A program made the translations under genes and the position numbers. Positions 27,178-63,636 of a DNA stretch of 64,000 bases are shown in pieces. A model generated the notes under the pieces. That model worked only from the letters and a program-made list of their open reading frames with translations, was not told where the DNA came from and did no database searches. The stretch covers positions 774 through 64,773 of the forward strand of contig JAWBVE010000004.1 of assembly GCA_038840695.1 (NCBI GenBank), in the 5' to 3' direction. Origin of the DNA: Candidatus Pacearchaeota archaeon. GTDB taxonomy: Archaea > Nanobdellota > Nanobdellia > Pacearchaeales > JAPDKA01. The first letter of the stretch is position 1, and every line of letters starts with the position of its first letter.

Positions 27178-27627
27178 TTATTTTGCCCTTATAAAATTTT
27201 CAATTGCTTTCATAAAATTTTCAAACTTATTTTGAACTTCACTAAACTTTGTCATGTCAAGAGTGATTACTTCATTATTAACAAAAATCTTCATTGTTAG
27301 GCCTTTCCTAAATTCGCTTTCAGTAACTTTTTTGTACTTATCTATATTCCTCATTGTTTCATAAAAGCCTAAGAAGTCAATAATTGCCTTTTCTTTCTTG
27401 AAAATTTTTTTTGCTAGCTCAAGTTGCTCAAGAGGCGTTTTTGGCACAACTTTAATGAGCTTTTTCTTTTTAGCATGCTCGAGTGCTATTTGTAAGCTAA
27501 GTGCAACGACTTCAACCATTTTCTTAATCACACTTACCATCAACTCGCCAGTTTTTGTGTATTTTAAGCTTGTGTAAAATAAATGCTGTTCCTCTCGCTT
27601 TTCTCGCTCAAGTTTTTTCAATGGCAT
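27178..27627 (-). CDS. hypothetical alpha-helical protein
   Basis: ATG at 27627. No recognisable motif. Same strand and 44 nt from the next gene. Confidence 0.35.
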   Translation of the reverse strand: MPLKKLEREKREEQHLFYTSLKYTKTGELMVSVIKKMVEVVALSLQIALEHAKKKKLIKVVPKTPLEQLELAKKIFKKEKAIIDFLGFYETMRNIDKYKKVTESEFRKGLTMKIFVNNEVITLDMTKFSEVQNKFENFMKAIENFIRAK

Positions 27628-27671
27628 TTTTTATTCTTTCTTTTTTACTTTTTATTTTTATTCTTTTATTT

Positions 27672-28166
27672 TTACGCTTTACTTTTTATTTTTTCTAAGT
27701 ATCTTGCCATAATTAAATCTTTTCTTAGCCTTTCTTCAATTTTTGCATAAAGCTCTTGAAGTTTTGAAAATTCCTGCTTTGCATCATCTATACTAAAAGC
27801 AATAAAATTTCCATTTTCTTTCATTGCAACATAGCTATTTTGTTTTAAAAAATTTACACTTGAATTTTGAATAAGCTCAGCTTTTGAAATGCAATGCTCA
27901 ATAAATTCTATCTCACTAATGTTAAGATAGCGCTTTGCTATTTTTTTAAATCCATCCAAGCTAAAGCCCTTAACATTTATTCTTTTATAAGCTTGTTCAT
28001 ATAAAAGCAAGGCTTCAGCCAAGTTTTTTGTTGCTTTTCCAATATCAAGAAAAATTTTCTCTAAAATTTTTTTATCTTTAAGTCTTGGGTAGAGCATATG
28101 GATGAAATAATTAATGCTCCTCAGCGATTCTTTTCCTGTTAAAAATATTTTGGCTATTTCTTCCAT
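27672..28166 (-). CDS. hypothetical alpha-helical protein
   Basis: ATG at 28166. No recognisable motif. Confidence 0.35.
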   Translation of the reverse strand: MEEIAKIFLTGKESLRSINYFIHMLYPRLKDKKILEKIFLDIGKATKNLAEALLLYEQAYKRINVKGFSLDGFKKIAKRYLNISEIEFIEHCISKAELIQNSSVNFLKQNSYVAMKENGNFIAFSIDDAKQEFSKLQELYAKIEERLRKDLIMARYLEKIKSKA

Positions 28167-28221
28167 GATAAATAAAGCCTTGTGACTATAAAAATATTTT
28201 TAGCCAAAAATTAGCAAAAAT

Positions 28222-28377
28222 TTATCCAAAAATATTTAGCAAAAGCTCGAGAATAATGAATATGATAATGATTAAGATCAGCAAGGTTGGTTTTATTTCT
28301 ATCCTGCTTTTATATTCTTCAAAATATCTTGTGAGCCCGCCAAAGCTCGGTGGCAACATAACTTTTTCTTCTGCCAT
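28222..28377 (-). CDS. secG: preprotein translocase subunit Sec61beta/SecG (archaeal)
   Basis: The ATG at 28377 gives the 52-aa MAEEKVMLPPSFGGLTRYFEEYKSRIEIKPTLLILIIIIFIILELLLNIFG. The GL.RYF.E...I...P plus C-terminal TM pattern is typical of archaeal Sec-beta. The longer track ORF (to 28443) is rejected. Confidence 0.7.
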   Translation of the reverse strand: MAEEKVMLPPSFGGLTRYFEEYKSRIEIKPTLLILIIIIFIILELLLNIFG

Positions 28378-28439
28378 CTTTTGCTTATGAATTTTGTAAG
28401 CAGGATATAAGCAGGAGGTAGGCCTCCTTTTGTTGCTCA

Positions 28440-28660
28440 GCATTAAGCAATGAGCAACCTAGCATCCTACTAAGCGGCTGTGCCTTTCACTCTTGGGTTG
28501 GCCGTTTCATCCCAGCGCCATGCGCATGGGTCTCGTTTCTGTGCCAGAGCCATGCTTTTCAGCATATGCCTTTAAGCATCAAGAGCTTGCAAAGGCAAGC
28601 TGAAGTGGGAGGACCTTCCTCACTATGCAGCGAGAGCTAGGCTCCTGCTTATTTTAGAAA
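28440..28660. ncRNA. GC-rich structured noncoding island (candidate structural RNA, class unresolved; SRP RNA or RNase P RNA-like considered)
   Basis: About 220 nt, clearly GC-richer than the flanks, with no ORF. Perfect hairpins AGCUUGC-AAAG-GCAAGCU, AUGCU-UUUC-AGCAU and CCAUG-CG-CAUGG. The termini are near-complementary (AAGCAAUGAGCAACCUAGC ... GCUAGGCUCCUGCUU), giving a long closing helix. Strand undetermined. Confidence 0.35.
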
Positions 28661-28765
28661 TAAAATTTTAAAATTTAAAAATTTTTTTAAAGTAAAAAAT
28701 AAAGCAAAAATAAACAAAGCGAAAGCAAAACGACAAAAGAAGACAAAATAAATGCAAAGAACAAA

Positions 28766-29122
28766 ATGAAAGCGCATGCTTATTTTGTGCTAATTCTCAC
28801 CTTTATTGCCTTTATTGCTTTAATCCTATGCTCAGGATGCAAAGAGAAATTGAGTGAGGATAGAGGCTTGAAGGAAGGCACAAAAGAATTAGAGTTGTGC
28901 ATGGCAGCTTGCTTAAGCGCGTTAGCAAAAAATCAAAGCCTTGAAAACGGGCCTTGCTTACTTGATCCAATAGAGAATAGCGATTGGGTCTGTGATATCG
29001 CGCATTGGCCAAGAGAACAAATAGATAATTTACGCGAAAATCAATGTAATGCTTGGCACAATGGCACAGCAAAGCATTTCATCGAGCTAACTCCAGAATG
29101 TAAATTCATAAGAGCGCTGTAA
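28766..29122 (+). CDS. small secreted Cys-containing hypothetical protein
   Basis: Signal peptide with lipobox-like FIALILCSGC. Eight Cys. Preceded by a 105-nt A-rich leader. Confidence 0.4.
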   Translation: MKAHAYFVLILTFIAFIALILCSGCKEKLSEDRGLKEGTKELELCMAACLSALAKNQSLENGPCLLDPIENSDWVCDIAHWPREQIDNLRENQCNAWHNGTAKHFIELTPECKFIRAL

Positions 29123-51107: not shown

Positions 51108-54100
51108 ATGGAATCGAAAAGAGGGCAGGGAAAAAAGCAAAAGTTAAAGCTTAAAGGCAAGAGCTTGAGCTTTCTTTTTCTTTTTATTTTATTTTTGCTT
51201 TTATTGCTTTGCCTTGCTTCTTATTTTTCTCTTTCTTATTCCAAAGCTTTGACTTTTTCATTCTTTCCTTATTTTATTAAGGAAGAGATAAGTAAGATAA
51301 GCACTGGTGAAAATATGGGCAGCAGTAGCGAGAATGTTAAGATAAGTGAGGATGTGTTGGAAGCACTGACGGCAGGGCAAAAGGTCAGAGTTGCAGTTGT
51401 TTTAAAAAGAGAGAAAAGAAATTTGAAAGGAATAAATGAAATTTCAAACCTGATTGAAAGCTCGGTTGGGAAAAAAATAAAGCATAAATTTTCTAATGCC
51501 ATAATAACTCTTGATGTTACAGAGCCAGAGCTTGAGGCTTTGAGGCATTTGAAAGGAATTGAGAGGATAGAAAAAGTTGGCATAAAGCAGGTTTTCTTGC
51601 AAGATAGTGTTAATATTGTAAATGCAAGTCAAGTCTGGAATTTGCAAGTTAATGGTGTTAATATAACGGGAGCAGGCGAAAGTGTTTGTGTTATTGATAC
51701 TGGCATAAATTATTCGCATGCTGATTTAGGTGGTTGCTTTGGGGCTGGCTGTAAAGTTATTAGCGGCTATGATTTTTGTGCAGATGACTCAACTTGTAGT
51801 ACTAGCGACTCTGATCCGAGAGATGTTCATGGTCATGGCACGCATGTTGCAGGCATTATAGCTGCTAGCGGCTCTATTAAAGGCATAGCTCCTGATGCTA
51901 AGCTTATTGCTTTAAAAGTTTGTAATGCAACAGGCTCTTGTTGGGATGATGATGTAAAAGCGGCAATTGATTGGTGTATTGCAAATGCATCTATCTTTAA
52001 CATTTCAGTCATAAGCATTTCTCTTGGCGGCGGACTTTATGCTAACTATTGTGACTATATTGATGATCCGCAAAATATAACTGCAAGTATAAATAGCGCA
52101 GTAGCTAATAACATATCAGTAATAGCGGCTAGTGGCAATCAAGGAAGTACAACACGCATTGCAAGCCCTGCATGTATAAGGAATGTAACAGCTGTAGCAG
52201 CAACAACGAAGAGTGATGCAATATGGAGTTCATCAAATAGAAATAATATAACAGATCTAGTGGCCCCTGGAGAAAACATAAACTCAACTTGTATAGATGG
52301 CAGTTATTGTTTAAAAAGCGGCACGAGCATGGCAACTCCTCATGTTTCAGGAGCTTTTGCTCTGATTAGGCAATTTAAAAGATTAGAAAAAAATAAAATC
52401 TTAACACCTCAACAAATTCAGGATGTGTTAAATAATAGCGGCAAGCTAATTTATGATTCAGGAAGCGGCTTAAATTTTTCTCGCATTAACGTTTATTCAG
52501 CAATTTTAAGCATAGACGAGACCGCTCCTGAAATTCAATTTGTTGCTCCGACAGAGGCGAGTGGTGCATTGTTGAGCAGAAATTATATTCAAGTAAATGT
52601 TACAGCAAGCGATAGCATTAGTGGATTAAAAAATATGACGGCTTATTTATATAATGCAACACATCTAATTAATTCAACAAGCTCGAATGGGGCAAGTGGA
52701 ACTTTATTTATCAATTTCACTAATCTTAGTGATGGCGTTTATTATTTTAATGCAACAGCCTACGACAATGCTGGCAACTTGAATGTTACAGAAACACGAA
52801 ATGTAACAATCGACACAACAAGCCCGGCCATTCAATTTGTTGCTCCTACGCCGAGCAATGGCAGCTTTGTAAATGCTAGCTGGATTTTTATTAATATAAG
52901 CTCAAATGAGGCTTTGAGCATGGCAATTCTTGAGTGGAATGGCACAAATGAGAGCATGCAAGGTAGTGGAAGCAATTGGTATCTTAACAAAACATCTCTT
53001 GCTGAAGAAAGTTATAGCTTTAAGGTCTATGCTAATGACTCTGTTGGCAATACGAATGTAACACAAGAAATGATTGTTTCAATTGATCTTACACAACCAA
53101 CAATAGAATTTAATCCAGATAGCGATATAAGCGGAACTTATGAGAGAGATTGGATTTTTGTTAATGTAAGTTGCTCTGATTTGCATAAAAGTTTAGTATT
53201 ATTAAATTGGAATGGAACAGATGAAGGTTTTGATAGCAGTGAAGGCGATAGCTATTGGAAAAACAAAACTGGCTTGAGCGATGGAGAGCATATCTTTTAT
53301 GCCTGGTGCAATGATGCTGCTGGAAATAGCAATTTCACTGAAGCACGAGTAGTAATTATTGCTGCACAACCACCTGCAATAGCTCTTGAAAGTCCGCCGG
53401 GTGAATTAGCAACAAACAATGTAACAATTCAGTTTAATTGTTCTGCAAGTGATGGAAATGGTTTAGCCAATATTACACTCTGGCACAACTTTGGTGGATG
53501 GCATGCAAATGAGACTCATGCTGTGAGTGGGCAAAGTAATGCTACAGTATTCATAAAGGAATTTGCCGATGGAAACTATGTCTGGAGTTGTTCTGCATGT
53601 GATAGTTTTGGGCAATGCAATGAAAGCGGTCAAAACAGAAGTTTTGTGATAGATACCATTATGCCAAGCATTGATAATGTGAATGTTACAGGGCTAACTT
53701 CTTCGAGTGCAACAATTGTTTGGGATACTAGTGAAAGCAGTAATTCGAGTATAAATTATGGCAAAAGTCTTGCTTTAGGAATGCTAAGAGCAGATGCCAA
53801 CTTAGTTTTGCAGCATTCAATTACTTTAAATGGCTTAAGTGCATCGACTCTTTATTATTACAATGTAACTAGCTGTGATATTGCAGGCAATTGCAATACA
53901 ACAGGGCCTTTCAATTTCACTACCCTCGCTGGCGGAGGAGGCGGCGGTGGCGGAGGCGCAGGCGGTGGTGGAGCTGGAGGAGGAGCTGGAGGAGGAGCAG
54001 CAGGCGGAGCTGGCGGCGGTTTTGGCGGAGTAAGCGAAGCGAGCCAAACTGAAAAAGGCAGCACATTTGATATTTCACAAGAGCTTGAGACAAATTTATT

Positions 54101-54677
54101 TTCTAAAGTAGAAGTTAAAGCCAAGGATAAAATTATTTTTAAATTAAAAGCCGAGCAGCATACTATTTTTATTGAAGCTATAGGAAGCGATTTTATTGAG
54201 ATAACTGTTAAGAGTAATGAAATAAGAAAAAGAATTTATTTAAATGAGAAAGTCAGCTTTGATATTGATGCTGATAACAAGGCCGATTTTTCTCTAACTT
54301 TAGAAAGAATTATTGACAGAAAAGCTGTAATAAAGCTTGAGCTTCTTTGTGATTGCCCGCAATGCAGTGCATGGAGTGCTTGTGTTAATGGCACAACGAG
54401 CAGGGAATGCTATCGATGTGTGCTTGGAGAGTGCCAAGCCTTTAACGAGACAATATCGTGCCAAGTGCCAAAACAAATAAAAGCAGCAAAATTACTTAAG
54501 CTTTTCTTAGTGCTTGGGGTAATAATTTCCATAATTCTTGCATTAATTGTTATTGGAATAATGAGACTTCTAAGAGAAGAGAAAAGGGAAGGGAGGAAAG
54601 AAGAAAGAGGAGAGGAGAAAAAAGAAGAAAAAAGCAGGCAGAAAATATTTGAAAAAGCACAAATAGAGGGAACATAA
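51108..54677 (+). CDS. membrane-anchored subtilisin-like serine protease (S8) with I9 propeptide, multiple Ig-like/FN3-like domains and poly-Gly/Ala linker
   Basis: Signal peptide. The catalytic triad is Asp (VCVIDTGINYSHADLGG), His (HGTHVAGIIAA) and Ser (GTSMATPHVSGAFAL). Repeated beta-domains carry NxT/S motifs. GGGGGGGGAGGGGAGGGAGGGAAGGAGGG at nt ~53928-54030. C-terminal TM LVLGVIISIILALIVIGIM with a charged tail. Confidence 0.85.
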   Translation: MESKRGQGKKQKLKLKGKSLSFLFLFILFLLLLLCLASYFSLSYSKALTFSFFPYFIKEEISKISTGENMGSSSENVKISEDVLEALTAGQKVRVAVVLKREKRNLKGINEISNLIESSVGKKIKHKFSNAIITLDVTEPELEALRHLKGIERIEKVGIKQVFLQDSVNIVNASQVWNLQVNGVNITGAGESVCVIDTGINYSHADLGGCFGAGCKVISGYDFCADDSTCSTSDSDPRDVHGHGTHVAGIIAASGSIKGIAPDAKLIALKVCNATGSCWDDDVKAAIDWCIANASIFNISVISISLGGGLYANYCDYIDDPQNITASINSAVANNISVIAASGNQGSTTRIASPACIRNVTAVAATTKSDAIWSSSNRNNITDLVAPGENINSTCIDGSYCLKSGTSMATPHVSGAFALIRQFKRLEKNKILTPQQIQDVLNNSGKLIYDSGSGLNFSRINVYSAILSIDETAPEIQFVAPTEASGALLSRNYIQVNVTASDSISGLKNMTAYLYNATHLINSTSSNGASGTLFINFTNLSDGVYYFNATAYDNAGNLNVTETRNVTIDTTSPAIQFVAPTPSNGSFVNASWIFINISSNEALSMAILEWNGTNESMQGSGSNWYLNKTSLAEESYSFKVYANDSVGNTNVTQEMIVSIDLTQPTIEFNPDSDISGTYERDWIFVNVSCSDLHKSLVLLNWNGTDEGFDSSEGDSYWKNKTGLSDGEHIFYAWCNDAAGNSNFTEARVVIIAAQPPAIALESPPGELATNNVTIQFNCSASDGNGLANITLWHNFGGWHANETHAVSGQSNATVFIKEFADGNYVWSCSACDSFGQCNESGQNRSFVIDTIMPSIDNVNVTGLTSSSATIVWDTSESSNSSINYGKSLALGMLRADANLVLQHSITLNGLSASTLYYYNVTSCDIAGNCNTTGPFNFTTLAGGGGGGGGGAGGGGAGGGAGGGAAGGAGGGFGGVSEASQTEKGSTFDISQELETNLFSKVEVKAKDKIIFKLKAEQHTIFIEAIGSDFIEITVKSNEIRKRIYLNEKVSFDIDADNKADFSLTLERIIDRKAVIKLELLCDCPQCSAWSACVNGTTSRECYRCVLGECQAFNETISCQVPKQIKAAKLLKLFLVLGVIISIILALIVIGIMRLLREEKREGRKEERGEEKKEEKSRQKIFEKAQIEGT
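53928..54030 (+). repeat. GGN/GCN codon microsatellite encoding poly-Gly/Ala linker inside the S8 protease gene
   Basis: ggcggaggaggcggcggtggcggaggcgcaggcggtggtggagctggagg... is continuous GGN/GCN and translates to GGGGGGGGAGGGGAGGGAGGGAAGGAGGG. Confidence 0.8.
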
Positions 54678-54733: not shown

Positions 54734-55195
54734 ATGGAGAGCGAGAAAAAGAAAGAGAAAAGTGAGAAAGAAAAGGAGAGAAAAGAAGAAAAAAAGAAAA
54801 AAGTGAAAGTGACAAAGGTGGGGCGAGCAGAGAAAGCAGAGAGGATGGCGATTGGGGAGAAAGCGCAAATGCCAAAATCAGATGAAGTTGAAAAGCTTGT
54901 AGTTGAGCTTTTTAAGCAAGGTAATAGCCCGGAAAAAATAGGAATGATTCTGCGTGATAGCTATGGCATTGGCGATGTTAAAGCTATAACTGGAAAAAAA
55001 ATTACTCGAATTTTAAAAGAAAAAGGTTTTAAGGTTTTTCCTCCAGATCTTCTTGCCCTGCAAGAAAAAATGAAAGCTTTGCAGAAACATTTTGAAAAGC
55101 ATAAGCATGATTATGTTGCAAAGCGGAGACTACAAAGGCTCGAAGCACAAATAAGAATTTTGACTGATTATCATAAAAGAAGACATAATATATAG
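54734..55195 (+). CDS. rps15: 30S ribosomal protein S15 (uS15, S13e-type) with K/E-rich N-terminal extension
   Basis: VEKLVVELFKQGNSPEKIGMILRDSYGIGDVKAITGKKITRILKEKGF and the C-terminal helical YVAKRRLQRLEAQIRILTDYHKR match archaeal S15. Confidence 0.75.
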   Translation: MESEKKKEKSEKEKERKEEKKKKVKVTKVGRAEKAERMAIGEKAQMPKSDEVEKLVVELFKQGNSPEKIGMILRDSYGIGDVKAITGKKITRILKEKGFKVFPPDLLALQEKMKALQKHFEKHKHDYVAKRRLQRLEAQIRILTDYHKRRHNI

Positions 55196-55407
55196 CAGCA
55201 AAGCCAGGAGAGAGAACGAACGGAGCAACACGGGCTAGGCAATGGAGGCAGGAAAAATGAACGAGACAGGCAAAAGAGACGAGACGCGAGAGAGTTGAGA
55301 GGCAAGAGGTACAAGATGAGAAGCTTTGAGGCAGTTGAGTTAAACATTGAGTTTGGTTATTGGAAAGGAGTTCTAAAAGCTTTTAAATTAAGGCCTTAAG
55401 CTTTTTT

Positions 55408-57045
55408 ATGGAAATACTTGAATTTATAAAAAAAACTGCAAGTGCTTTTTCTAAAGCAATAGAAAGCAATAAGCAAATAGCTCTTTTTTGCCATTATGAT
55501 GCAGATGGCCTAAGCTCAGTAGCTCTTTTCGCTAAAGTGCTCAAAGCCTTAAACAAAAAATTTTTTATTAGAGTTTTAAATAGCTTAGATGAATCAATTG
55601 TCAAAGAAATAAAACAAGAAAGCAAAAATTTTTCAGCAGCAGTCTTTCTTGATCTGGCTTCTAATGCCGATTTTTCAGGATTTGAGTGTGATGTGTTTGT
55701 TATTGATCATCATATAATAAGGAAGCAAAGTCAAGAAGAAAGCCAAGAACAAGAAGAGCAAGAGAGGCAAGATTGGCAAGACGTGCAAGATTGGCAAGAT
55801 GGAAAAGATGTGCAAGTGCAAGAGGAGGAACGAGAGGGGCAGCCAGGAGCAAAGCAAGAGCAAGATTGGCAAGAGCAAGAAAGTCAAGAGCAGAGAAAAA
55901 GAGTGCATTTAATTAATTACAGGCTATTTCAAGATAGCGAGGATTATGAAACAAGCGCGAGCATTTTGAGTTATTTTTTTGTTTCAAGCTTGGATTTTGT
56001 GCATAAAAGCCATAGCCATAAAAGCCTTGAGCTAAAGCAACTTAAGCCAATAGCTCTTATTGGGCTTATTGGTGATGGCCTTGATAGGAGGCTCAGTAAG
56101 CTTAGTAGCTTTTTTTTAAAAAAAGCAAGAGAAAGCGGGGCAATTGATATTAAAAAAGGAATTAGCATTTTTTCATATTCGAGGCCAATTCATAGAGCTA
56201 TTGAATTTAGCTCAATATACATTCCGGGAATAACTGGTAATAGCGAAGCTGTGGTAGAATTTCTTAGAAGTTTAGGCATTGAATTAAAAGAGGGCAATAA
56301 ATATAGAACATTTGCTGATTTAAGCAAAGAAGAGATTTCAAGGTTAATAACTGCCATTGCCACTTTAAGAGCTTATGAAAACAAAGGGATTGATTTTATA
56401 GGAAATGTTTACTTGGCTAGATTTTTTGATACAGTAGAAGATGCAAAAGAAATAACAACAGCAATAAATGCATGTGGCAGACTTGGCAAAGGCTATTTGC
56501 CTCTTGCCTACTTGCTTGGGAACAAAAGGGCTCAAGAGCTTATAGAAAAAACATATGCTGAATACAAGTTTGAAATAATGAAAGCATTTGAATATATAAA
56601 TGAAATACAGCAAAATGAAACAAATCAGGAAAATGAGATAAATGAAAAAGGTGAAATGAATGAGAGAAATCAAATTATTAAAAATCGAATTATCAAAGGA
56701 GATAATTGGATAATCATAGACGGGCATGATAAAATAAAGGATAGCATAATAGGTGTTATCTGCTCAATGATTGCTAACTCTGGCATTTATAAAGATGGCT
56801 CTGTAATAGTTGGGTTAGCAGATAGGCACGATGGAGATGAAGTTAAAACCAAGGTTAGCATAAGAACTGTCAATAGCCCAAAAGCTCTTGCTTTATTGAA
56901 TAAAGTGGCTCAAGTTGTGAATATTAGTGAGATGGGAGGCCATGAGATGGCCGCCGGAGCATGGCTTGATATTAGGCAAAAAGGAGCATTTTTAAAATGT
57001 ATAGAAAAAATTTTGCAAGAAGAAAGCGTGACAATAAAAATTTAA
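55408..57045 (+). CDS. recJ: RecJ/GAN (Cdc45-like) DHH-family phosphoesterase with low-complexity Q/E/W insertion
   Basis: DHH motif I CHYDADGLSS. Motif III VFVIDHH. DHHA1 block MGGHEMAAGAW. The insertion (QDWQDVQDWQDGKDVQ...) lies at nt ~55725-55900. rps15-recJ adjacency is the conserved archaeal arrangement. Confidence 0.75.
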   Translation: MEILEFIKKTASAFSKAIESNKQIALFCHYDADGLSSVALFAKVLKALNKKFFIRVLNSLDESIVKEIKQESKNFSAAVFLDLASNADFSGFECDVFVIDHHIIRKQSQEESQEQEEQERQDWQDVQDWQDGKDVQVQEEEREGQPGAKQEQDWQEQESQEQRKRVHLINYRLFQDSEDYETSASILSYFFVSSLDFVHKSHSHKSLELKQLKPIALIGLIGDGLDRRLSKLSSFFLKKARESGAIDIKKGISIFSYSRPIHRAIEFSSIYIPGITGNSEAVVEFLRSLGIELKEGNKYRTFADLSKEEISRLITAIATLRAYENKGIDFIGNVYLARFFDTVEDAKEITTAINACGRLGKGYLPLAYLLGNKRAQELIEKTYAEYKFEIMKAFEYINEIQQNETNQENEINEKGEMNERNQIIKNRIIKGDNWIIIDGHDKIKDSIIGVICSMIANSGIYKDGSVIVGLADRHDGDEVKTKVSIRTVNSPKALALLNKVAQVVNISEMGGHEMAAGAWLDIRQKGAFLKCIEKILQEESVTIKI

Positions 57046-57093
57046 GCAAAAATTTAAGCAAACTTAAGCAAAAACTTTAAAAAGAAAGAGAAT

Positions 57094-57130
57094 AAAAATT
57101 ATCATAAAGAGTAAAAATTATCATAAAGAG
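57094..57130 (+). repeat. 18-nt tandem duplication (aaaaattatcataaagag x2) immediately upstream of psmA
   Basis: Two perfect copies separated by 1 nt. The second copy ends 7 nt before the psmA ATG (57138). Confidence 0.7.
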
Positions 57131-57137
57131 AAGAAAA

Positions 57138-57866
57138 ATGACAGATGGTGACTTTCAAAGTCAGTTGATGGGATATGATAGAGCGAGTACACTCTTCAGT
57201 CCAGAAGGACGTATCTTTCAAGTAGAGTATGCAGAAAAGACAGTTAGGCTTGGTGCAGATAGTATGGGCTTTGTTTGTAAGGACGGAGTTTTACTTATGG
57301 CTGATAAGAGAATGCTTGATAGCTTGATGGTTGGAAAAAGTATTTTTAAGATTTATGAAATAGACAACCATATCATAGCAAGTGCAGCCGGAATTTTGAG
57401 CGATGCGAGAGTATTGATTGAAAGGGCTCAGCTTTATGCACAACAGCATAGAGTAACTTTCGATGATGATGTTGAGATAGAGGCAGTTGTTAGGGATATA
57501 TGTAATATAAAGCAGGCATTTACTCAATATGGTGGTGTAAGGCCTTTTGGCGTTCAAATTATGCTTGCTGGAATAAATATTGATGGCTCAAAAAGACTTT
57601 ATGTTACTGATGTGACCGGAAACTATAATGCATATTATGCTTTTGCAATTGGTGAGCATGATGAAAAAATCAAGGAAATTTTGCGTAAAGAGTATCGAGA
57701 AAGTACAATTAATGAAACAATAAAATTTGGCTTGAAGATATTTAAAAAAATTCTTGGCAAAGATTTTAATTATGAGAGGATTGATGTGATGTATGTTAGG
57801 GATAAGGACAGAAAGGCTGTAAAATTAGATCCTGAAGATATCAAAAAGCTTGATAAAGAAAAATAA
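57138..57866 (+). CDS. psmA: proteasome subunit alpha
   Basis: YDRASTLFSPEGRIFQVEYAEKTV is the canonical alpha-subunit N-terminal signature. 242 aa. Confidence 0.9.
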   Translation: MTDGDFQSQLMGYDRASTLFSPEGRIFQVEYAEKTVRLGADSMGFVCKDGVLLMADKRMLDSLMVGKSIFKIYEIDNHIIASAAGILSDARVLIERAQLYAQQHRVTFDDDVEIEAVVRDICNIKQAFTQYGGVRPFGVQIMLAGINIDGSKRLYVTDVTGNYNAYYAFAIGEHDEKIKEILRKEYRESTINETIKFGLKIFKKILGKDFNYERIDVMYVRDKDRKAVKLDPEDIKKLDKEK

Positions 57867-57869
57867 GCA

Positions 57870-58622
57870 ATGGAACATCCAAAAAGGCTTGAGGCGAATA
57901 TAGCTAGAATAAAAAAACTTGGCAAAGATTTTGAAATTATTCTTGATGATGTTGAAGAAGCTTTGAGGCTGAGAGAAAAGTTGAGGCAGTCTAGGAAGCA
58001 AGGCAAAAAAGTTGAGGAGACAGAGATTATTGACAGCATACAGAAAATTTGTCCGGTAAATACAATCTTTCTTGATGAAAAAAAAGGCTTGAAGCCGACA
58101 GAAGCTCAACTTAATGAGGCTTTTGGCACGACTGATTTTTTTACAATAGCTGCAGAAATAATTGAGAGCGGTGATATTGTGTTGCCGCTTGAATTAAGAA
58201 AAAAGTTGAGAGAGCAAAAATTTAGACAGATTGTTGATTTCATAGCAAGAAATGCTATCGATCCAAGGACAAAGACTTTGCATCCTCCAGAGCGTGTCGA
58301 GGCAGCCCTTAAGCAGATTGGAGCTAAAATTGATGAGATGAAAAGCATAGACGAGCAAATACAACAAATTGTAAATGACTTGTCAAAAGTGCTGCCAATA
58401 AAACTTGAAACAAGAAAGCTAGAAGTGATTGTGCCAGCAGCATTCACTGCTAAGGCCTATGGGTTAATCACAAAATATAACAGGCAGCAAGAGGAGTGGC
58501 TAGATGATGGAAGCTTGAAAGTTATCATAGCTTTGCCAAGTGCGCTTCAGCCAGAATTTTTCGATAAGCTTAATAAAGCCACTAACGGCACAGCACTAAC
58601 AAAAGATCTCGGCGAAGCTTGA
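57870..58622 (+). CDS. sdo1: ribosome maturation protein SBDS/Sdo1 homolog
   Basis: FYSH-domain blocks KLGKDFEIILDDVEEALRL and LNEAFGTTDFFTIAAEIIESGDIVLP. Starts 3 nt after psmA, matching the conserved psmA/SBDS/exosome operon. Confidence 0.7.
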   Translation: MEHPKRLEANIARIKKLGKDFEIILDDVEEALRLREKLRQSRKQGKKVEETEIIDSIQKICPVNTIFLDEKKGLKPTEAQLNEAFGTTDFFTIAAEIIESGDIVLPLELRKKLREQKFRQIVDFIARNAIDPRTKTLHPPERVEAALKQIGAKIDEMKSIDEQIQQIVNDLSKVLPIKLETRKLEVIVPAAFTAKAYGLITKYNRQQEEWLDDGSLKVIIALPSALQPEFFDKLNKATNGTALTKDLGEA

Positions 58623-58791
58623 TTGCTTTTTTGCTTTTTGGCTAGAGCTTGTAACATATAAAGTAAAACAAAAAGTTTTAAATAAAAATGACTTATTCTG
58701 CAAAACTAAAAAATAAACAAAAAAAATAAAAACTAAAAAAACCAAAATAAAAACCAAAATAAAAACTAAAAATAAAAACTGGAAATAAAAA

Positions 58792-59214
58792 ATGGTAAGG
58801 GATATATTTGATGAGATATTTGAGAAGATGGCAAGACTTAGGAGAGAGCTTGAGTTAGGCTTTGAGAGATTTGAGAAAGAAATGCGAGTGCCAATGTTAG
58901 ATTTGCGAGAAACGGAGAATGAACTTATTGCGTCTATAGAAATGCCTGGAATTGACAAAAAAGATATAGAGCTAATACTTACAGAAGACAGCCTTGAAGT
59001 TAAGGCTGAAAAAAAGAAAGAGGCAAAGGTGGAGAAAGAAGGCTATATCAAGGCAGAAAGAGCTTATAAGGGCTTTCATAGGTTTATAAGTCTTCCAGTA
59101 AAAATTATTCCAGAGCAGGCAAGCGCAAGCTACAAAGATGGCATTCTCGAAGTCAGAATGCCAAAGGCAGAGAAGAAAAAAGTTAAGAAAGGACTAAAAG
59201 TAGAAATAAAGTAG
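58792..59214 (+). CDS. hsp20: small heat shock protein, Hsp20/alpha-crystallin family
   Basis: Alpha-crystallin domain LDLRETENELIASIEMPGIDKKDIELILTEDSLEVKAE...YKGFHRFISLP...ASYKDGILEVRMPK. Confidence 0.8.
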   Translation: MVRDIFDEIFEKMARLRRELELGFERFEKEMRVPMLDLRETENELIASIEMPGIDKKDIELILTEDSLEVKAEKKKEAKVEKEGYIKAERAYKGFHRFISLPVKIIPEQASASYKDGILEVRMPKAEKKKVKKGLKVEIK

Positions 59215-59372
59215 ATCAAGTGAAAGAAGAGGAAAAAGAGGTCCAATATAGCTTCGCATACCTTCTTTTGTTTCCTAAAAGAATAGAAAAGAATAGATTT
59301 GCAAAGATTTAAAAATACCAATTTTCTATTTAAAAAGAAAAGAAAAAGAAAAAATTAATTTATTATTAAAAG

Positions 59373-60269
59373 ATGAATGAAGCTATTAAAGAAAAAAAGG
59401 AGAAAGTTCTAAAGCAAGTTAAAAAAAGTGAAGCCGCCGAAGCCACCGAAGCCACAGAAGCTAGCGAGCTTAAAAAAGTCGAGCTAGAACATAAGGAAAG
59501 AAAGCTTGTTGTGCCTGGCGAAGTTGTGGCTAGTGGCTATGAGTATTTGGCAGGAGAGGGCTGTGCACGAGAGGAAAGAGATATAGTTGCTATTAAATTC
59601 GGGATTTTGAGTAGAGAAGGAAATTTATTTAAAGTTATACCTATAGGAGGTGTTTATTTGCCTCGCGTGGGGAATGTAGTTATAGGGCAGATCATTGATG
59701 TTACTTTTAATGGCTGGTTTGTTGATATATATGCTCCTTATCAGGCATTCTTGCCAGTCACAGAAGTAATGAGTAAAGCAACAAGTAAATGGGATAGTGA
59801 AAATTTCATTAACTATTATGATATTGGCGATATAATAATAACAAAAGTTAAAGCAGTTCAACCGAGGAGTGTAACCTTAACGATGCATGATCGTGGGCTA
59901 ACTAAAATAACTTCTGGCCTACTTGTTAAAATTGGGCCTTCGAGAGTAGCTAGAATAATTGGAAAGCAAGGAAGTATGGTTAATGTTATTAAAGATATAA
60001 CCAAGACAAAAATAATTGTTGGCCAGAATGGCATAGTTTGGGTAAAAGGCGAGAATGCCGAATCAGAACTTCTTGCTAAGGAAGCTATCGAGCTTGTTGC
60101 AGAAAATCCCTTACTTGATGGCTTGACAGAAAAAGTTAAAAAACTCTTAGAAGAAAAGATGAAAAAAGTTGAGGAAGGGAGCAAGAAAGAAAGGAAAGAA
60201 AAAATGGAAGAAAAAGAAAGAAAAGAAGAAAGAAAAGAAGAAAAAATGGAAGAAAAGAAGAAAAGTTAA
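59373..60269 (+). CDS. rrp4: exosome complex RNA-binding subunit Rrp4 (S1 + KH)
   Basis: The N-terminal VVPGEVVA is present. S1 domain GNVVIGQIIDVTFNGWFVDI. KH domain RIIGKQGSMVNVIKDITKTKIIVGQNGIVWVKG. K/E-rich C-terminal tail. Confidence 0.8.
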   Translation: MNEAIKEKKEKVLKQVKKSEAAEATEATEASELKKVELEHKERKLVVPGEVVASGYEYLAGEGCAREERDIVAIKFGILSREGNLFKVIPIGGVYLPRVGNVVIGQIIDVTFNGWFVDIYAPYQAFLPVTEVMSKATSKWDSENFINYYDIGDIIITKVKAVQPRSVTLTMHDRGLTKITSGLLVKIGPSRVARIIGKQGSMVNVIKDITKTKIIVGQNGIVWVKGENAESELLAKEAIELVAENPLLDGLTEKVKKLLEEKMKKVEEGSKKERKEKMEEKERKEERKEEKMEEKKKS

Positions 60270-60292
60270 GAAAAAAGTGAAAAAAAGTTAAG

Positions 60293-61006
60293 ATGGCATA
60301 CACAAAGCGGTTTGATGGTAGAGCATTTGATGAAGTAAGACCAATTAGAGCAGAAGTCGGAATTATAGAGAATGCTGATGGCTCTGCTCTATTTGCTTTC
60401 GGCGATACTGTAGCCATAGCAGCTGTCTATGGCCCAAGACAGCTTTATCCACAGCATTTACAAAATCCAGAAAAAGCTTTACTTAGAGCTTATTATGATA
60501 TGCTCTCTTTTTCTGTTAAGGAAAGAAAAAAGCCGGGCCCTTCGAGGAGAAGTGCTGAAATAAGCCATGTCACAACACAGGCACTTGCACCAGTTTTACT
60601 TTTAAATAAATTTCAAAATTGTGTTATCGATGTTTATATACAGATTGTCCAAGCCAATGCCTCAACTAGAACAGCAGGAATAAATGCAGCAAGTCTTGCC
60701 TTGGCTCATGCAGGAATTCCTATGAAAGACCTTGTATGTAGTGTTTCTGCCGGCAAGATTGGAAATGCCATAGTTGTTGATTTAACAAAGGAGGAAGAGG
60801 ATTATAAAGAAAATAATGTTAAGGAAGCAACAGATATTGCTCTTGCCTTTGAAGCTAAAAGCAAAGACATATGCTTGCTACAGCTTGATGGAAAAATAAG
60901 CCCGGCAGATCTTTTTAAGGCAATAGAACTTGCAAGAAAAGCAAGCAGTAAGGTTTATGAAGCTCAAGTAAAAGCATTAAAAGGAATAAAAGCAAAATGG
61001 ATTTAA
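60293..61006 (+). CDS. rrp41: exosome complex exonuclease Rrp41 (RNase PH fold)
   Basis: RPIRAEVGIIENADGSALFAFGDTVAIAAVYGP... is the RNase PH domain 1 signature. 237 aa. Confidence 0.85.
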   Translation: MAYTKRFDGRAFDEVRPIRAEVGIIENADGSALFAFGDTVAIAAVYGPRQLYPQHLQNPEKALLRAYYDMLSFSVKERKKPGPSRRSAEISHVTTQALAPVLLLNKFQNCVIDVYIQIVQANASTRTAGINAASLALAHAGIPMKDLVCSVSAGKIGNAIVVDLTKEEEDYKENNVKEATDIALAFEAKSKDICLLQLDGKISPADLFKAIELARKASSKVYEAQVKALKGIKAKWI

Positions 61007-61027
61007 AATTTCAAAAAGGATTGAAAA

Positions 61028-61831
61028 ATGGAAACGTCTAAAGTAATGCGTGCCACTTTAGTAGGGCTTTTAAAGAAAGGGAAGAGGTTAGATGAAAGAA
61101 AGCTCGACGAATATAGAAAAATTCAGGTAAGGTCGGGGATAAGTAATAATGCTGAGGGAAGTGCTGAAGTGAGGCTTGGCAAAACTATTGTGTATGTAGG
61201 AGTAAAAATTGACATAGGCGAGCCTTTCCGTGATGCCCCTGATGAAGGTATACTTGTTGTTAATGCAGAACTTTTGCCTCTATCTTATCCTGGCTTTGAG
61301 CCTGGTCCACCAGGTATTGATGCTATTGAACTTGCAAGGATTGTTGATAGAGGCATTAGAGAGAGTGAGTTCATAAAGTTAAAAGAGCTTTGCATTGAGC
61401 CAGGAAAAAAAGTTTATTCTGTCTTTATTGATATTTATCCTATAAACTATGATGGCAATCTTGTTGATGCAAGTTTTTTAGCTAGTATTATTGCTTTAAG
61501 ACAAGCCTTCTTGCCAAAACTTGAGAAGCAAGGAGAGGATTGGCAGATAGTTTACGGCGAGAAAACAAATAAAAAACTTCCTTTAAATTCAAAAATACCA
61601 TTGATGGTGACTGTTTATAAGATGGAAGACGTACTTTTTCTTGATCCAAATCTTACAGAGGAAAAGGCCTGTGATGCAAAAATAAGCCTTGGGTTTACTG
61701 AAGATAAAAAAGAGCTAATCATACATGCAATGCAAAAGCTCGGAGAAGATAAATTAAAACAAGCCCAATTACAAGCCATAATCGAACTTGCAAAAAAAGG
61801 TGCAGAACAAATAAAAAAATTTTTAATTTGA
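61028..61831 (+). CDS. rrp42: exosome complex subunit Rrp42 (RNase PH-like, inactive)
   Basis: NAEGSAEVRLGKTIVYVGVK...DEGILVVNAELLPLSYPGFEPGPPG. Follows rrp41 by 21 nt. Confidence 0.8.
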   Translation: METSKVMRATLVGLLKKGKRLDERKLDEYRKIQVRSGISNNAEGSAEVRLGKTIVYVGVKIDIGEPFRDAPDEGILVVNAELLPLSYPGFEPGPPGIDAIELARIVDRGIRESEFIKLKELCIEPGKKVYSVFIDIYPINYDGNLVDASFLASIIALRQAFLPKLEKQGEDWQIVYGEKTNKKLPLNSKIPLMVTVYKMEDVLFLDPNLTEEKACDAKISLGFTEDKKELIIHAMQKLGEDKLKQAQLQAIIELAKKGAEQIKKFLI

Positions 61832-61849
61832 AAAGATTGATAGGTTAGC

Positions 61850-62278
61850 ATGGCTGAAAAGGCAAAAGCTGGGAGAGAAGAGAGAGGCAAGAGCGAAGAG
61901 AGCTATACGAGATATGAAATAGCGCGAATAATTGCTGCTCGAGCATTACAACTTAGCATGAATGCTCCAATTCTTTTAAAGCTCTCAAAAGAGCAATTAG
62001 AAAGCTTGGCTTATAATCCTATTAAGATAGCCGAACTTGAATTTAAGGAAGGAGTATTGCCTATTACTGTGAAGAGGCCAAGGCCGAGACCACTATTATT
62101 AGTACCTTACGAAGAAGAACTGCCAGAAAAAATTGTAGAGGCTGGAACAGAAGAAGAGAAAGAAAAAGAGAAAGAAGAAGTAGTCGCAGAAACAATAGAA
62201 AGTGAGCTCGAGCCTGTTGAGATTGAGGAAAAAGAGGTTATTGAAGAGGAAGAAGAAAAAGAGGGCTTTGAGGAATAA
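61850..62278 (+). CDS. rpoK: DNA-directed RNA polymerase subunit K (Rpo6/RpoK) with acidic C-terminal extension
   Basis: YTRYEIARIIAARALQLSMNAPILL...NPIKIAELEFKEGVLPITVKR matches the RpoK/Rpb6 core. rpoK-eno adjacency is conserved in archaea. Confidence 0.8.
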   Translation: MAEKAKAGREERGKSEESYTRYEIARIIAARALQLSMNAPILLKLSKEQLESLAYNPIKIAELEFKEGVLPITVKRPRPRPLLLVPYEEELPEKIVEAGTEEEKEKEKEEVVAETIESELEPVEIEEKEVIEEEEEKEGFEE

Positions 62279-62337
62279 AGCGCGATGGGTATAAGGCTGG
62301 TAGGCGAAGTAAGGCGGCTTGTTAAAAGCTTATATTT

Positions 62338-63636
62338 ATGAAATTGAGTCAAATAAAAGCTTCAAAGGTTTATGATTCGAGAGGAAAAGCTACGATAGAA
62401 GTTACCATAAACTTTAATAGTACTAGCGTGAGTGCAAGTGCGCCTAATGGCACTTCTCGAGGGAAAAAAGAGGTTATCGATTTCTCTAGGAAAGGCGTAG
62501 ATTATAGCATAGAGTTAGTGAATAAAGTTGGGGCCGAGATATTGAGTAAGGGGCTTAAGTTTGAGAGCTTCGAAGATTTGGCAAAGATAGAGGAAATTAT
62601 TAGGAAATATGATAGCAGTTCTGATTATCGGATTTTCGGCGGGAATGCAGTTTATGCTCTCGAGGCAGCTATGCTAAAAGCTATTGCAAAAGCCAATGAG
62701 CTAGAGACATGGCAATTGCTTGAAAGCAGGGCAAAAGCAAAGCCAAAAATGCCCTTACCTCTTGGCAATTGCATTGGAGGAGGAAAGCACATTAAGGAAA
62801 GCGAAAAGCCAGAATTTCAGGAATTTTTGCTTACACCAAGAACAAAAAAATTTTTTGAGGCAGTTTTTATTAATCGAGAGGCTTATAAAAGGGCAAAAGA
62901 GTTTTTGCAAAAAAAAGGAAAGTTGACTGGCTTGACTATTGAAAATGCTCTTTTTGGGCCTTTTAGCAATGAAGAAGCCCTCTCTATTCTTGAAGAAGTT
63001 AGGGAAAGCATAAAAGAAAGCTTTGGCATAAAGCTAGAGCTTGGCGTAGACATAGCGGCTACAAGCTTTTATAGCAAAAGCAAAAATGCATATTATTACT
63101 CAAAGCCTGCCAGGCCTGCCCAGCCAGCCCAGCCAGTCCAGCCAGTTGAGCTCACCAAGCCTGCTAAGTCTATCAGGCCAGCCATTCTTTCAGCATCGGC
63201 CCAGCTTGACTATATAAGTGAATTAATAAAAAAGCATGGCTTATTTTATGTTGAAGATCCTTTCCATGAAGATGACTTTAAAAGTTTTTCAAAGCTATCG
63301 GCACTTACAAAATGCCTAATTGTAGGGGATGACTTGACTTGCACTAATGCAGAAATTATAAAGAAGGCAATAGCATGCAAGGCTATAAAGGGAGTAATAA
63401 TAAAGCCAAATCAGGCAGGAAGCTTGATTGCAACAAAGCAGGCTTTTGATCTTGCAAGGCGCGCAGGCCTAAAAACGATAATAAGCCATCGAAGCGGCGA
63501 AACAGAGGATGATTTCATAGCAGATCTTGCAGTTGGCTGGCAGGCAGATTTTATTAAGGCAGGCATAATTGGCAAAGAGAGAGAAGCAAAGCTCAAGAGA
63601 GTTGTTGCTATAGAAAAATCTCTGACTGGAGAGTGA
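62338..63636 (+). CDS. eno: enolase (divergent, with Pro-rich low-complexity loop)
   Basis: The N-terminus KVYDSRGKATIEV...APNGTSRGKKEV is present. GGGKHIKE...FQEFLLTP matches the GG.H..FQEF block. VIIKPNQAGSL carries the catalytic Lys. SHRSGETEDDFIADLAVG is present. A loop is replaced by PARPAQPAQPVQPVEL. Confidence 0.85.
   Translation: MKLSQIKASKVYDSRGKATIEVTINFNSTSVSASAPNGTSRGKKEVIDFSRKGVDYSIELVNKVGAEILSKGLKFESFEDLAKIEEIIRKYDSSSDYRIFGGNAVYALEAAMLKAIAKANELETWQLLESRAKAKPKMPLPLGNCIGGGKHIKESEKPEFQEFLLTPRTKKFFEAVFINREAYKRAKEFLQKKGKLTGLTIENALFGPFSNEEALSILEEVRESIKESFGIKLELGVDIAATSFYSKSKNAYYYSKPARPAQPAQPVQPVELTKPAKSIRPAILSASAQLDYISELIKKHGLFYVEDPFHEDDFKSFSKLSALTKCLIVGDDLTCTNAEIIKKAIACKAIKGVIIKPNQAGSLIATKQAFDLARRAGLKTIISHRSGETEDDFIADLAVGWQADFIKAGIIGKEREAKLKRVVAIEKSLTGE
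63118..63144 (+). repeat. 9-nt tandem repeat (gcccagcca x2 + gtccagcca) inside eno
   Basis: Direct tandem copies encode PAQPAQPVQP within the enolase coding frame. Confidence 0.8.

Follow-up and report, generated by a model that had tools for sequence, protein, structure and literature searches.

The GC-rich island at positions 28407-28652 of the window (the whole stretch of 64,000 nt of DNA that was analysed) almost certainly encodes, in single copy and on the minus strand, the archaeal RNase P RNA of a member of the Pacearchaeota (DPANN). RNase P RNA is a ribozyme with the housekeeping task of trimming tRNA precursors at their 5' ends, and the RNA described here is an ordinary essential housekeeping gene in unusually trimmed form, of a kind that is found by a standard Rfam scan. 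It is a genuine RNase P RNA whose catalytic core and specificity-domain motifs are intact and have been kept by compensatory evolution, and in architecture it matches none of the archaeal types A, M, and T exactly.

Identity, strand, and limits of the RNA gene

The Rfam model for archaeal RNase P RNA (RF00373, RNaseP_arch) matches only the minus strand of the interval 28407-28652, over model positions 1-288, with 123.7 bits (gathering score 84; E = 3.6e-34). This was the one non-tRNA match in an Rfam scan of the whole window at gathering thresholds, and the archaeal model is the best member of the Rfam clan for this interval; the Plasmodium RNase_P model gave only a weak match, located outside the RNA. 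The original prediction, made from the letters of the sequence, had proposed a structural RNA at this place, had considered SRP RNA, RNase P RNA, a reduced or divergent form of a known RNA, or a novel RNA, and had suggested an Infernal search and folding as checks. The covariance search thus confirms one of these candidates over the full length of the model, and the word "reduced" was apt, since both P12 and the P15-17 module are truncated. SRP RNA is not supported, as its model (RF01857) found nothing at E ≤ 1 in 28200-28900 and nothing at the gathering threshold in the whole window. Nor is a novel RNA supported: no other family reached its gathering score in the region, the next best match in a permissive Rfam scan of 28200-28900 having an E-value of 0.18 and 21.6 bits vs a gathering score of 78. 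Minimum free energy folding yielded stable structures on both strands (z = -3.2 for the minus strand, z = -3.4 for the plus strand) but did not separate them; the minus strand is assigned because of the covariance model and the strand-specific conserved regions.

The difference in composition that had been noticed is real. GC content is 0.49-0.56 in 100-nt windows across about 28400-28650 and 0.16-0.33 in the flanks on both sides, and the 246-nt RNA has a value of 0.516, vs a mean of 0.354 (sd 0.049) for 246-nt windows across the 64-kb window, 0.2% of which reach 0.52. The sole other 246-nt window with a GC content like that of the island lies at about 53750-54000 within an ORF of 1189 aa (51108-54677); it tops the GC ranking and has no Rfam match at the gathering threshold. 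The limits of the island, which had been set at 28440-28660, are to be corrected to 28407-28652, since a start at 28440 leaves out 33 nt, among them one strand of the terminal helix. The statement that the block is free of ORFs holds for real genes: a 73-aa mechanical ORF (28222-28443) enters the RNA only via a spurious N-terminal extension. It is an over-extended form of the neighbouring Sec61beta gene, for which PF03911 fits the 51-aa version, the ortholog in the closest relative (L065) has 50 aa, and the record of GCA_038846035.1 has 51 aa.

The 246-nt RNA is 100% identical in four independent Logan assemblies derived from different SRA runs, and because of this identity the extra hairpins described below are not assembly artefacts; the source samples are those of the sites of SRR27730045, SRR27730034, SRR27730044, or SRR21619491. 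The adjoining HisRS is 100% identical to the NCBI protein of a Candidatus Pacearchaeota MAG (GCA_038846035.1, JAWBQH010000001.1). For the annotation of this MAG, the assignment fills in an essential gene, explains the GC island, and exposes the over-extended 73-aa ORF.

Architecture of the RNA

The elements of the RNA are listed below in 5' to 3' order. Nucleotide n of the RNA corresponds to window position 28653 - n, and the map was derived from the Rfam alignment and hand-checked against the sequence.

28407-28652, minus strand: RNase P RNA gene, 246 nt (RF00373; identical in four Logan assemblies; syntenic homologue in L065)
28642-28652, minus strand: P1 5' strand, nt 1-11, pairing with 28407-28417 (nt 236-246) in 11 perfect bp
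28636-28641, minus strand: P2 5' strand, nt 12-17, CCUAGC, pairing with 28458-28463 (nt 190-195, GCUAGG)
28619-28634, minus strand: P3, a very short hairpin with the loop GCAU, nt 19-34 (Rfam alignment, folding)
28608-28621, minus strand: CR-I and P4 5' strand, nt 32-45, GAGGAAGGUCCUCC, bulged U40 retained
28584-28601, minus strand: extra 7-bp hairpin AGCUUGC-CUUU-GCAAGCU, nt 52-69 (18 nt), between the 5' strands of P5 and P7
28566-28579, minus strand: P8, nt 74-87, AUGCU-UAAA-GGCAU (Rfam alignment and covariation)
28552-28565, minus strand: P9, nt 88-101, AUGCU-GAAA-AGCAU, with a GNRA loop (Rfam alignment and covariation)
28531-28551, minus strand: 5' strands of P10/P11 and CR-II (ACAGAAACGA), invariant in the alignments
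28511-28530, minus strand: P12, nt 123-142, a 20-nt hairpin of 8 bp and one bulged U, no K-turn motif (Rfam alignment, fold)
28496-28511, minus strand: CR-III (GAUGAAACGG) and 3' strands of P11 and P10 (Rfam alignment)
28476-28487, minus strand: J5/15 (AAAG) and P15 stub GGC-ACA-GCC, nt 169-177, replacing L15/P16/P17/P6
28464-28475, minus strand: CR-IV / J15/2 (GCUUAGUAGGAU) (Rfam alignment)
28434-28456, minus strand: hairpin at the P19 position, nt 197-219 (23 nt), UGCUCA...UGAGCA, between the P2 3' strand and CR-V
28419-28433, minus strand: CR-V and P4 3' strand (ACAAAAGGAGGCCUA) (Rfam alignment)

The universal features of the family are complete: all five conserved regions CR-I to CR-V are present, including the CR-I sequence GAGGAAGGUCC and the CR-IV motif GCUUAG..GAU, and P4 is intact. 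P4 is composed of nt 37-39 and 41-45 pairing with nt 226-233, U40 being the universal bulged U, and contains a compensatory G38-C232 pair in place of the usual A-U, which is also found in the Pacearchaeota RNA L032. P5 is formed by nt 46-49 with 162-165 and P7 by nt 70-73 with 158-161. The core helices P1, P2, P3, P5, P7, P8, P9, P10/11, and P12 are likewise conserved; covariation was counted formally for P8/P9, and compensatory changes in P1, P2, and P12 were read from the alignments of the relatives. According to the Rfam alignments, P1 shows compensatory differences in L065, L233, L234, and L235, and P2 reads GUCAAC/GUUGAC in L234 and GCCGAC/GUCGGC in L235.

Most of the hairpins that had been picked out by eye correspond to elements of this structure: AGCTTGC-AAAG-GCAAGCT (28584-28601) is the extra hairpin between P5 and P7, ATGCT-TTTC-AGCAT (28552-28565) is P9, and the complementary termini, 28642-28652 and 28407-28417, are the two strands of P1. 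The letters of CCATG-CG-CATGG are present at 28519-28530, but the proposed pairing is not native, as the segment lies in P12 and pairs in another register; as a hairpin of its own, CCAUG-CG-CAUGG would have a 2-nt loop and clash with the conserved closing pairs of P12, and it was rejected.

The RNA departs from the RF00373 model in four elements, namely a short P12, the P15 stub, the P5/P7 hairpin, and the hairpin at the P19 position. The P12 segment of the model is reduced from 46 to 13 nt and the whole of P12 from about 52 to 20 nt; folded alone, P12 forms CCCA.GCGC/GCGCUGGG, with closing pairs in register with those of the relatives, two of which (L234 and L235) retain a 46-nt P12 segment with a K-turn-like GAUGAU...UGA. 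The distal part of P15 is reduced from 39 model positions to 3 nt and is devoid of the L15 loop, P16, P17, and the P6 pseudoknot. The P5/P7 hairpin (-9.3 kcal/mol, z = -3.0) is missing in the five closest relatives, in which CR-I and CR-II are spaced by 55-56 nt vs 68 nt here, and strain variants, found via a 99% identical copy of a neighbouring 164-aa ORF, have a 100% identical RNA and hence provide no covariation data for it. Its absence from the closest relatives marks this hairpin as a recent insertion at the level of the species, and covariation lends it no support. The hairpin at the P19 position represents a 20-nt insertion with respect to the Rfam model (-13.1 kcal/mol, z = -4.7). In addition, the 3' strand of P1 is duplicated in tandem at 28397-28416 (minus strand, nt 237-256), UCCUGCUUA occurring at nt 237-245 and again at nt 248-256 with an 11-nt period, and the P1 3' strand of L065 has exactly the sequence of the second copy (CCUGCUUAC); because of this duplication, the mature 3' end of the RNA is ambiguous.

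Relatives, covariation, and comparison with the named types

Relatives were obtained in several ways. One genome per GTDB species was scanned for CR-II and CR-III with a short P12 between them. This pattern matched many DPANN MAGs, and, as short P12 was selected, the resulting DPANN sample is biased toward reduced RNAs. The closest relative is L065, from a Pacearchaeota MAG (83 bits with nhmmer, 145 bits with the Rfam model), and HisRS homologues led to four further RNase P RNAs (L232-L235; 152-180 bits); at three other loci of this HisRS synteny walk (L236-L238), no RNase P RNA was found within reach. With 145-180 bits for the homologues of this close group, the 123.7 bits obtained here are the lowest RF00373 score. 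A metagenome scan with GCTCTGGMACAGAAACGAKACC, in which P12 and P15 were unconstrained, provided control RNase P RNAs, mostly ordinary type A RNAs among the matches listed, none of which is closer than L065.

P15 stub, P19, P8, and P9 are supported by covariation in these relatives. Among the six closest RNAs, P8 and P9 are 100% paired and 8 of their 10 pairs are changed on both sides, a result reached by none of 500 shuffles, with slid controls at 20-55%; P8, 100% paired in the close group, has all 5 pairs changed on both sides. For the 3' half of the catalytic domain, a MAFFT segment alignment of nine RNAs was used, in which pairing of P15 stub and P19 helix amounts to 88.5% (shuffles: 60%) and each of the 10 pairs, including all 6 of P19, shows changes on both sides. 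A covariance model built on this alignment matched in 47 RNase P RNAs of genome-derived loci. In the 47 RNAs as aligned with this model, pairing reaches 90.6% in the P15 stub, where GC, CG, UA, and AU are all common, and about 87-88.5% in the P19 helix where aligned, slid controls being at 33-46%. Overall, pairing of the two elements amounts to 88.5-89.7% vs 51-60% in shuffles and 33-51% in slid controls; the 47-RNA alignment was fitted to the structure of the model and is therefore biased toward pairing, but both the slid controls and, independently, the MAFFT result speak for a real signal. A full-length MAFFT alignment misaligned P1-P3 and was left out of the pair counts, for which segment alignments and the covariance model were used instead.

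The P15 hairpin comprises 9-15 nt in total in all 46 RNAs from DPANN MAGs and 44 nt in the euryarchaeal control Methanofollis (L044), and it is likewise a stub in L234 and L235, which were reached by synteny and have a full-length P12. Among the matches listed, 78 of 80 control RNAs have a P15-17 module of 35-68 nt. A P19 insert of at least 12 nt is present in 38 of the 47 RNAs, and, again among the matches listed, a P19 hairpin of 30-61 nt occurs in 13 of the 78 controls with a normal module and in L171, which has a P15 stub. It is the P15 stub, not P19, that characterises the DPANN set. In Iainarchaeota-type RNAs (L050, L054, L081, L088, L099, and L103), GNRA-capped covarying hairpins are located exactly between P5 and P7, with stems such as AUC/GAU, ACUA/UAGU, GUCA/UGAU, and CUGUUC/GAACAG; the same RNAs have a two-part P19 helix with a CUUU-type loop. 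The hairpin and P19 may form a tetraloop-receptor brace in these RNAs that replaces P6/P16/P17, and the P5/P7 junction tolerates, and possibly favours, a hairpin once P6 is lost. In five other DPANN RNAs (L018, L045, L060, L077, and L084), CR-I and CR-II are separated by 42-45 nt with a single hairpin, which indicates that P8 is missing too and that these RNAs are fully type-M-like, outside Methanococcales and Archaeoglobus.

The reductions could also be the signs of decay. The RNA would then be a non-functional relic, and the 5' ends of tRNAs would be matured by the protein-only HARP or would not need maturation owing to leaderless tRNA transcripts, which were reportedly found in Nanoarchaeum equitans by Randau and co-workers in 2008. 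The distal part of P12 and the L15/P16/P17/P6 module have indeed been lost, the Rfam score is the lowest of the close group, the DPANN lineage concerned is one with reductive evolution, and a Pfam scan of 26 ORFs of the 64-kb window detected none of the RNase P proteins Pop5, Rpp30, Rpp29, Rpp21, and L7Ae, which says nothing on the rest of the genome. However, this reading is very unlikely: all five conserved regions and P4 with its bulged U are intact, and the compensatory changes in P1, P2, P4, P8, P9, P15, and P19 point to purifying selection on structure. The same reductions, moreover, recur across the 46 DPANN RNAs, and type M RNAs with the same losses in the catalytic domain are active together with proteins (PMC4919922, PMC5499556).

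Still more improbable is a structured RNA of another kind, be it SRP RNA, a novel noncoding RNA of the plus strand, or simply the structured leader of the Sec61beta mRNA. In its favour, folding of the plus strand is no less stable than that of the minus strand, and the Sec61beta start codon, on the strand of the RNA itself, follows after a gap of 30 nt that is free of oligo-T, so that the RNA may belong to that transcript. Against this, no other Rfam family comes near its threshold, the strand-specific motifs and covarying helices are those of RNase P, and co-transcription with Sec61beta would leave the identity of the RNA unchanged.

Three types of archaeal RNase P RNA, A, M, and T, are currently recognised (PMC13462272, 2026). 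Type A, found in Pyrococcus furiosus and Methanothermobacter, has P1-P5, P7-P12 including P8, and CR-I to CR-V in common with the RNA described here, and both are devoid of P13/P14/P18; P19 also occurs in some type A RNAs (PMC2858038, Table 3). Type A differs by its L15 internal loop, P16, P17, and P6 pseudoknot (35-68 nt), where the RNA here has a 9-nt stub, and by a P12 with a double K-turn, where P12 here has 20 nt and none; in short, P8 is present, whereas a P15 with L15, P16, P17, and P6 is not. Type M, found in Methanococcales and Archaeoglobus, shares the simple P15 hairpin and the absence of P16, P6, and the RCCA-binding loop L15, that is, the substrate-recognition loop of P15 (PMC4919922). 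In contrast to the covarying P8 of the RNA here, however, type M RNAs are devoid of P8; their P12 is long and carries a double K-turn (PMC5499556), and P19 is absent from them (PMC2858038), the RNA here being the opposite in both respects. Because it has the catalytic-domain losses of type M and yet keeps P8, it conforms to the definition of neither type. Type T RNAs have deleted the specificity domain and CR-II and kept P15-17/P6 (PMC13462272), the reverse of the situation here, where the RNA retains CR-II, CR-III, and P7-P12 but has no P15-17/P6; what the two share is that both are minimised archaeal RNAs of about 200-250 nt.

Parallels also exist outside the archaea. Bacterial type B RNAs, such as that of Bacillus subtilis, have lost P6/P16/P17 and in their place have P5.1, between P5 and P7, as well as P19 (PMC2858038). 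The RNA here belongs to another domain of life and another Rfam model, has no P10.1, P15.1, or P18, and thus does not show the type B combination of P5.1, P10.1, and P15.1 with a P18 core. The resemblance is one of position only and at most convergent, and no contact of the L5.1-L15.1 type can be proposed. The nuclear RNase P RNA of eukaryotes has a reduced P15 without RCCA-binding loop, in many cases P19, a conserved P8/P9, and, as here, a P12 without double K-turn (PMC2858038, PMC5499556, PMC4919922). The RNA here differs from it in scoring as archaeal (RF00373) and in the absence of the eukaryote-type P3 internal loop, and the parallel in the short P15 and P19 is again a resemblance without membership.

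It is possible, though less likely than not, that the DPANN archaea (Pacearchaeota/Woesearchaeota, Iainarchaeota, Aenigmatarchaeota, and Micrarchaeota) have a distinct, unnamed class of RNase P RNA. Such a class would combine a type-M-like catalytic domain (P15 stub, no L15/P16/P17/P6) with an often type-A-like P8, a conserved P19, and a recurrent P5.1-like hairpin between P5 and P7, and in lineages like the Pacearchaeota one described here P12 would be truncated and without L7Ae K-turn sites. If true, it predicts an L7Ae-independent archaeal RNase P with at most four proteins. No description of the structure of DPANN RNase P RNAs was found in an open-access subset of the literature, which is not proof of novelty, and a survey of 2019 in which DPANN are mentioned was restricted to proteins (PMC6380272). 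The RNA described here is a further member of a known family, and the residual interest, a modest one, lies in the misfit of DPANN RNAs with the A/M/T scheme. For the biology of RNase P, its value is comparative, as an M-like catalytic domain, an A-like P8, P19, and a hairpin at the position of P5.1 are combined with the loss of both L7Ae regions. Provided that the pattern of the 46 DPANN RNAs holds, these RNAs are natural minimal variants for testing which peripheral RNA elements and protein cofactors are dispensable.

Predicted function and genomic neighbourhood

The RNA folds into the two domains usual for the family, a catalytic domain (P1-P5, P15, CR-I, CR-IV, and CR-V) and a specificity domain (P7-P12, CR-II, and CR-III). 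The former, built round the P4 pseudoknot with the bulged U, is predicted to cleave the 5' leader from pre-tRNAs, and the latter to recognise the tRNA elbow. In the ribonucleoprotein, Pop5-Rpp30 would be bound to the catalytic and Rpp21-Rpp29 to the specificity domain, and like type M RNAs, the RNA here is probably inactive without proteins. The two added hairpins, that of the P19 position and the P5/P7 hairpin, probably take over from the lost peripheral elements in bracing the core.

In type A RNAs, the L15/P16/P17/P6 module base-pairs with the 3'-RCCA of the tRNA, and it has been reasoned that L15 is missing from the RNAs of organisms whose genomes do not encode CCA (PMC4919922). The RNA here presumably does not read the 3'-RCCA. 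CCA is not encoded by any of the four tRNA genes in the window, and the loss of L15 therefore fits, as it does in type M and in eukaryotes (PMC4919922). Binding of L7Ae is documented for K-turns of P12, which has a double K-turn in types A and M, and for K-turns of P16-17 in type A (PMC5499556). Because both of these regions are missing here and no tandem G.A motif was seen elsewhere in the 246-nt RNA, it is a reasonable inference from the sequence that L7Ae is no longer recruited.

Two further features border the RNA gene:

28222-28377, minus strand: Sec61beta gene, 51 aa (Pfam PF03911), same strand as the RNA, start 30 nt downstream of it
28653-28690, minus strand: upstream spacer with 16% GC and runs of the TTTAAAT/TAAAAT type about 25-30 nt before nt 1 (by inspection)

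The spacer is a putative archaeal TATA region, inferred from its position and letters and not statistically distinguishable in such AT-rich DNA. A scan for sigma-70 promoters and intrinsic terminators gave counts at shuffle expectation, the models used being not applicable to archaea. The flanking gene that had been called secG is the Sec61beta gene, and the arrangement of RNase P RNA followed by Sec61beta on the same strand occurs in the window (28222-28407) as well as in L065 (5535-5745), L234 (750-937), and L232 (2157-2662). The conservation of this adjacency in several Pacearchaeota contigs suggests co-transcription of the ribozyme gene with the mRNA of a small membrane protein, and RNase P RNA and Sec61beta may thus share a transcript; the gap between the RNA and the Sec61beta start is 30 nt and contains no oligo-T.

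The gene order in L065 is the same as in the window, with a 149-aa ORF, an ORF of about 160 aa, Sec61beta, RNase P RNA, a tRNA gene, and HisRS. The neighbour on the other side of the RNA, described earlier as a small secreted-protein gene, is a 118-aa ORF (28766-29122, plus strand) between the RNA and tRNA-Thr; it has a hydrophobic N-terminus (LILCSGC), many cysteine residues, and no Pfam match. It is absent at the equivalent site in L065, and L232 has a 121-aa ORF at the equivalent place.

Pop5 and Rpp30 often reside in exosome/proteasome clusters. The window contains a cluster at 54734-63636 that resembles the exosome/proteasome superoperon, with S15, PsmA, SBDS, Hsp20, Rrp4, and RpoK/Rpb6, as well as a 545-aa ORF that is RecJ-like by eye, an enolase-like ORF, and two RNase-PH-like ORFs. 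ORFs of this cluster were among the 26 covered by the Pfam scan, and PsmA has neither Pop5 nor Rpp30 as a neighbour. Downstream of Sec61beta, two lineage-specific conserved ORFs of 149 aa and 164 aa are located at 27178-28166 (minus strand) in the window and at 4533-5485 in L065. Neither belongs to a Pfam family, and the 164-aa protein has one homologue cluster, a 99% identical copy, in a database of 5.8 billion proteins.
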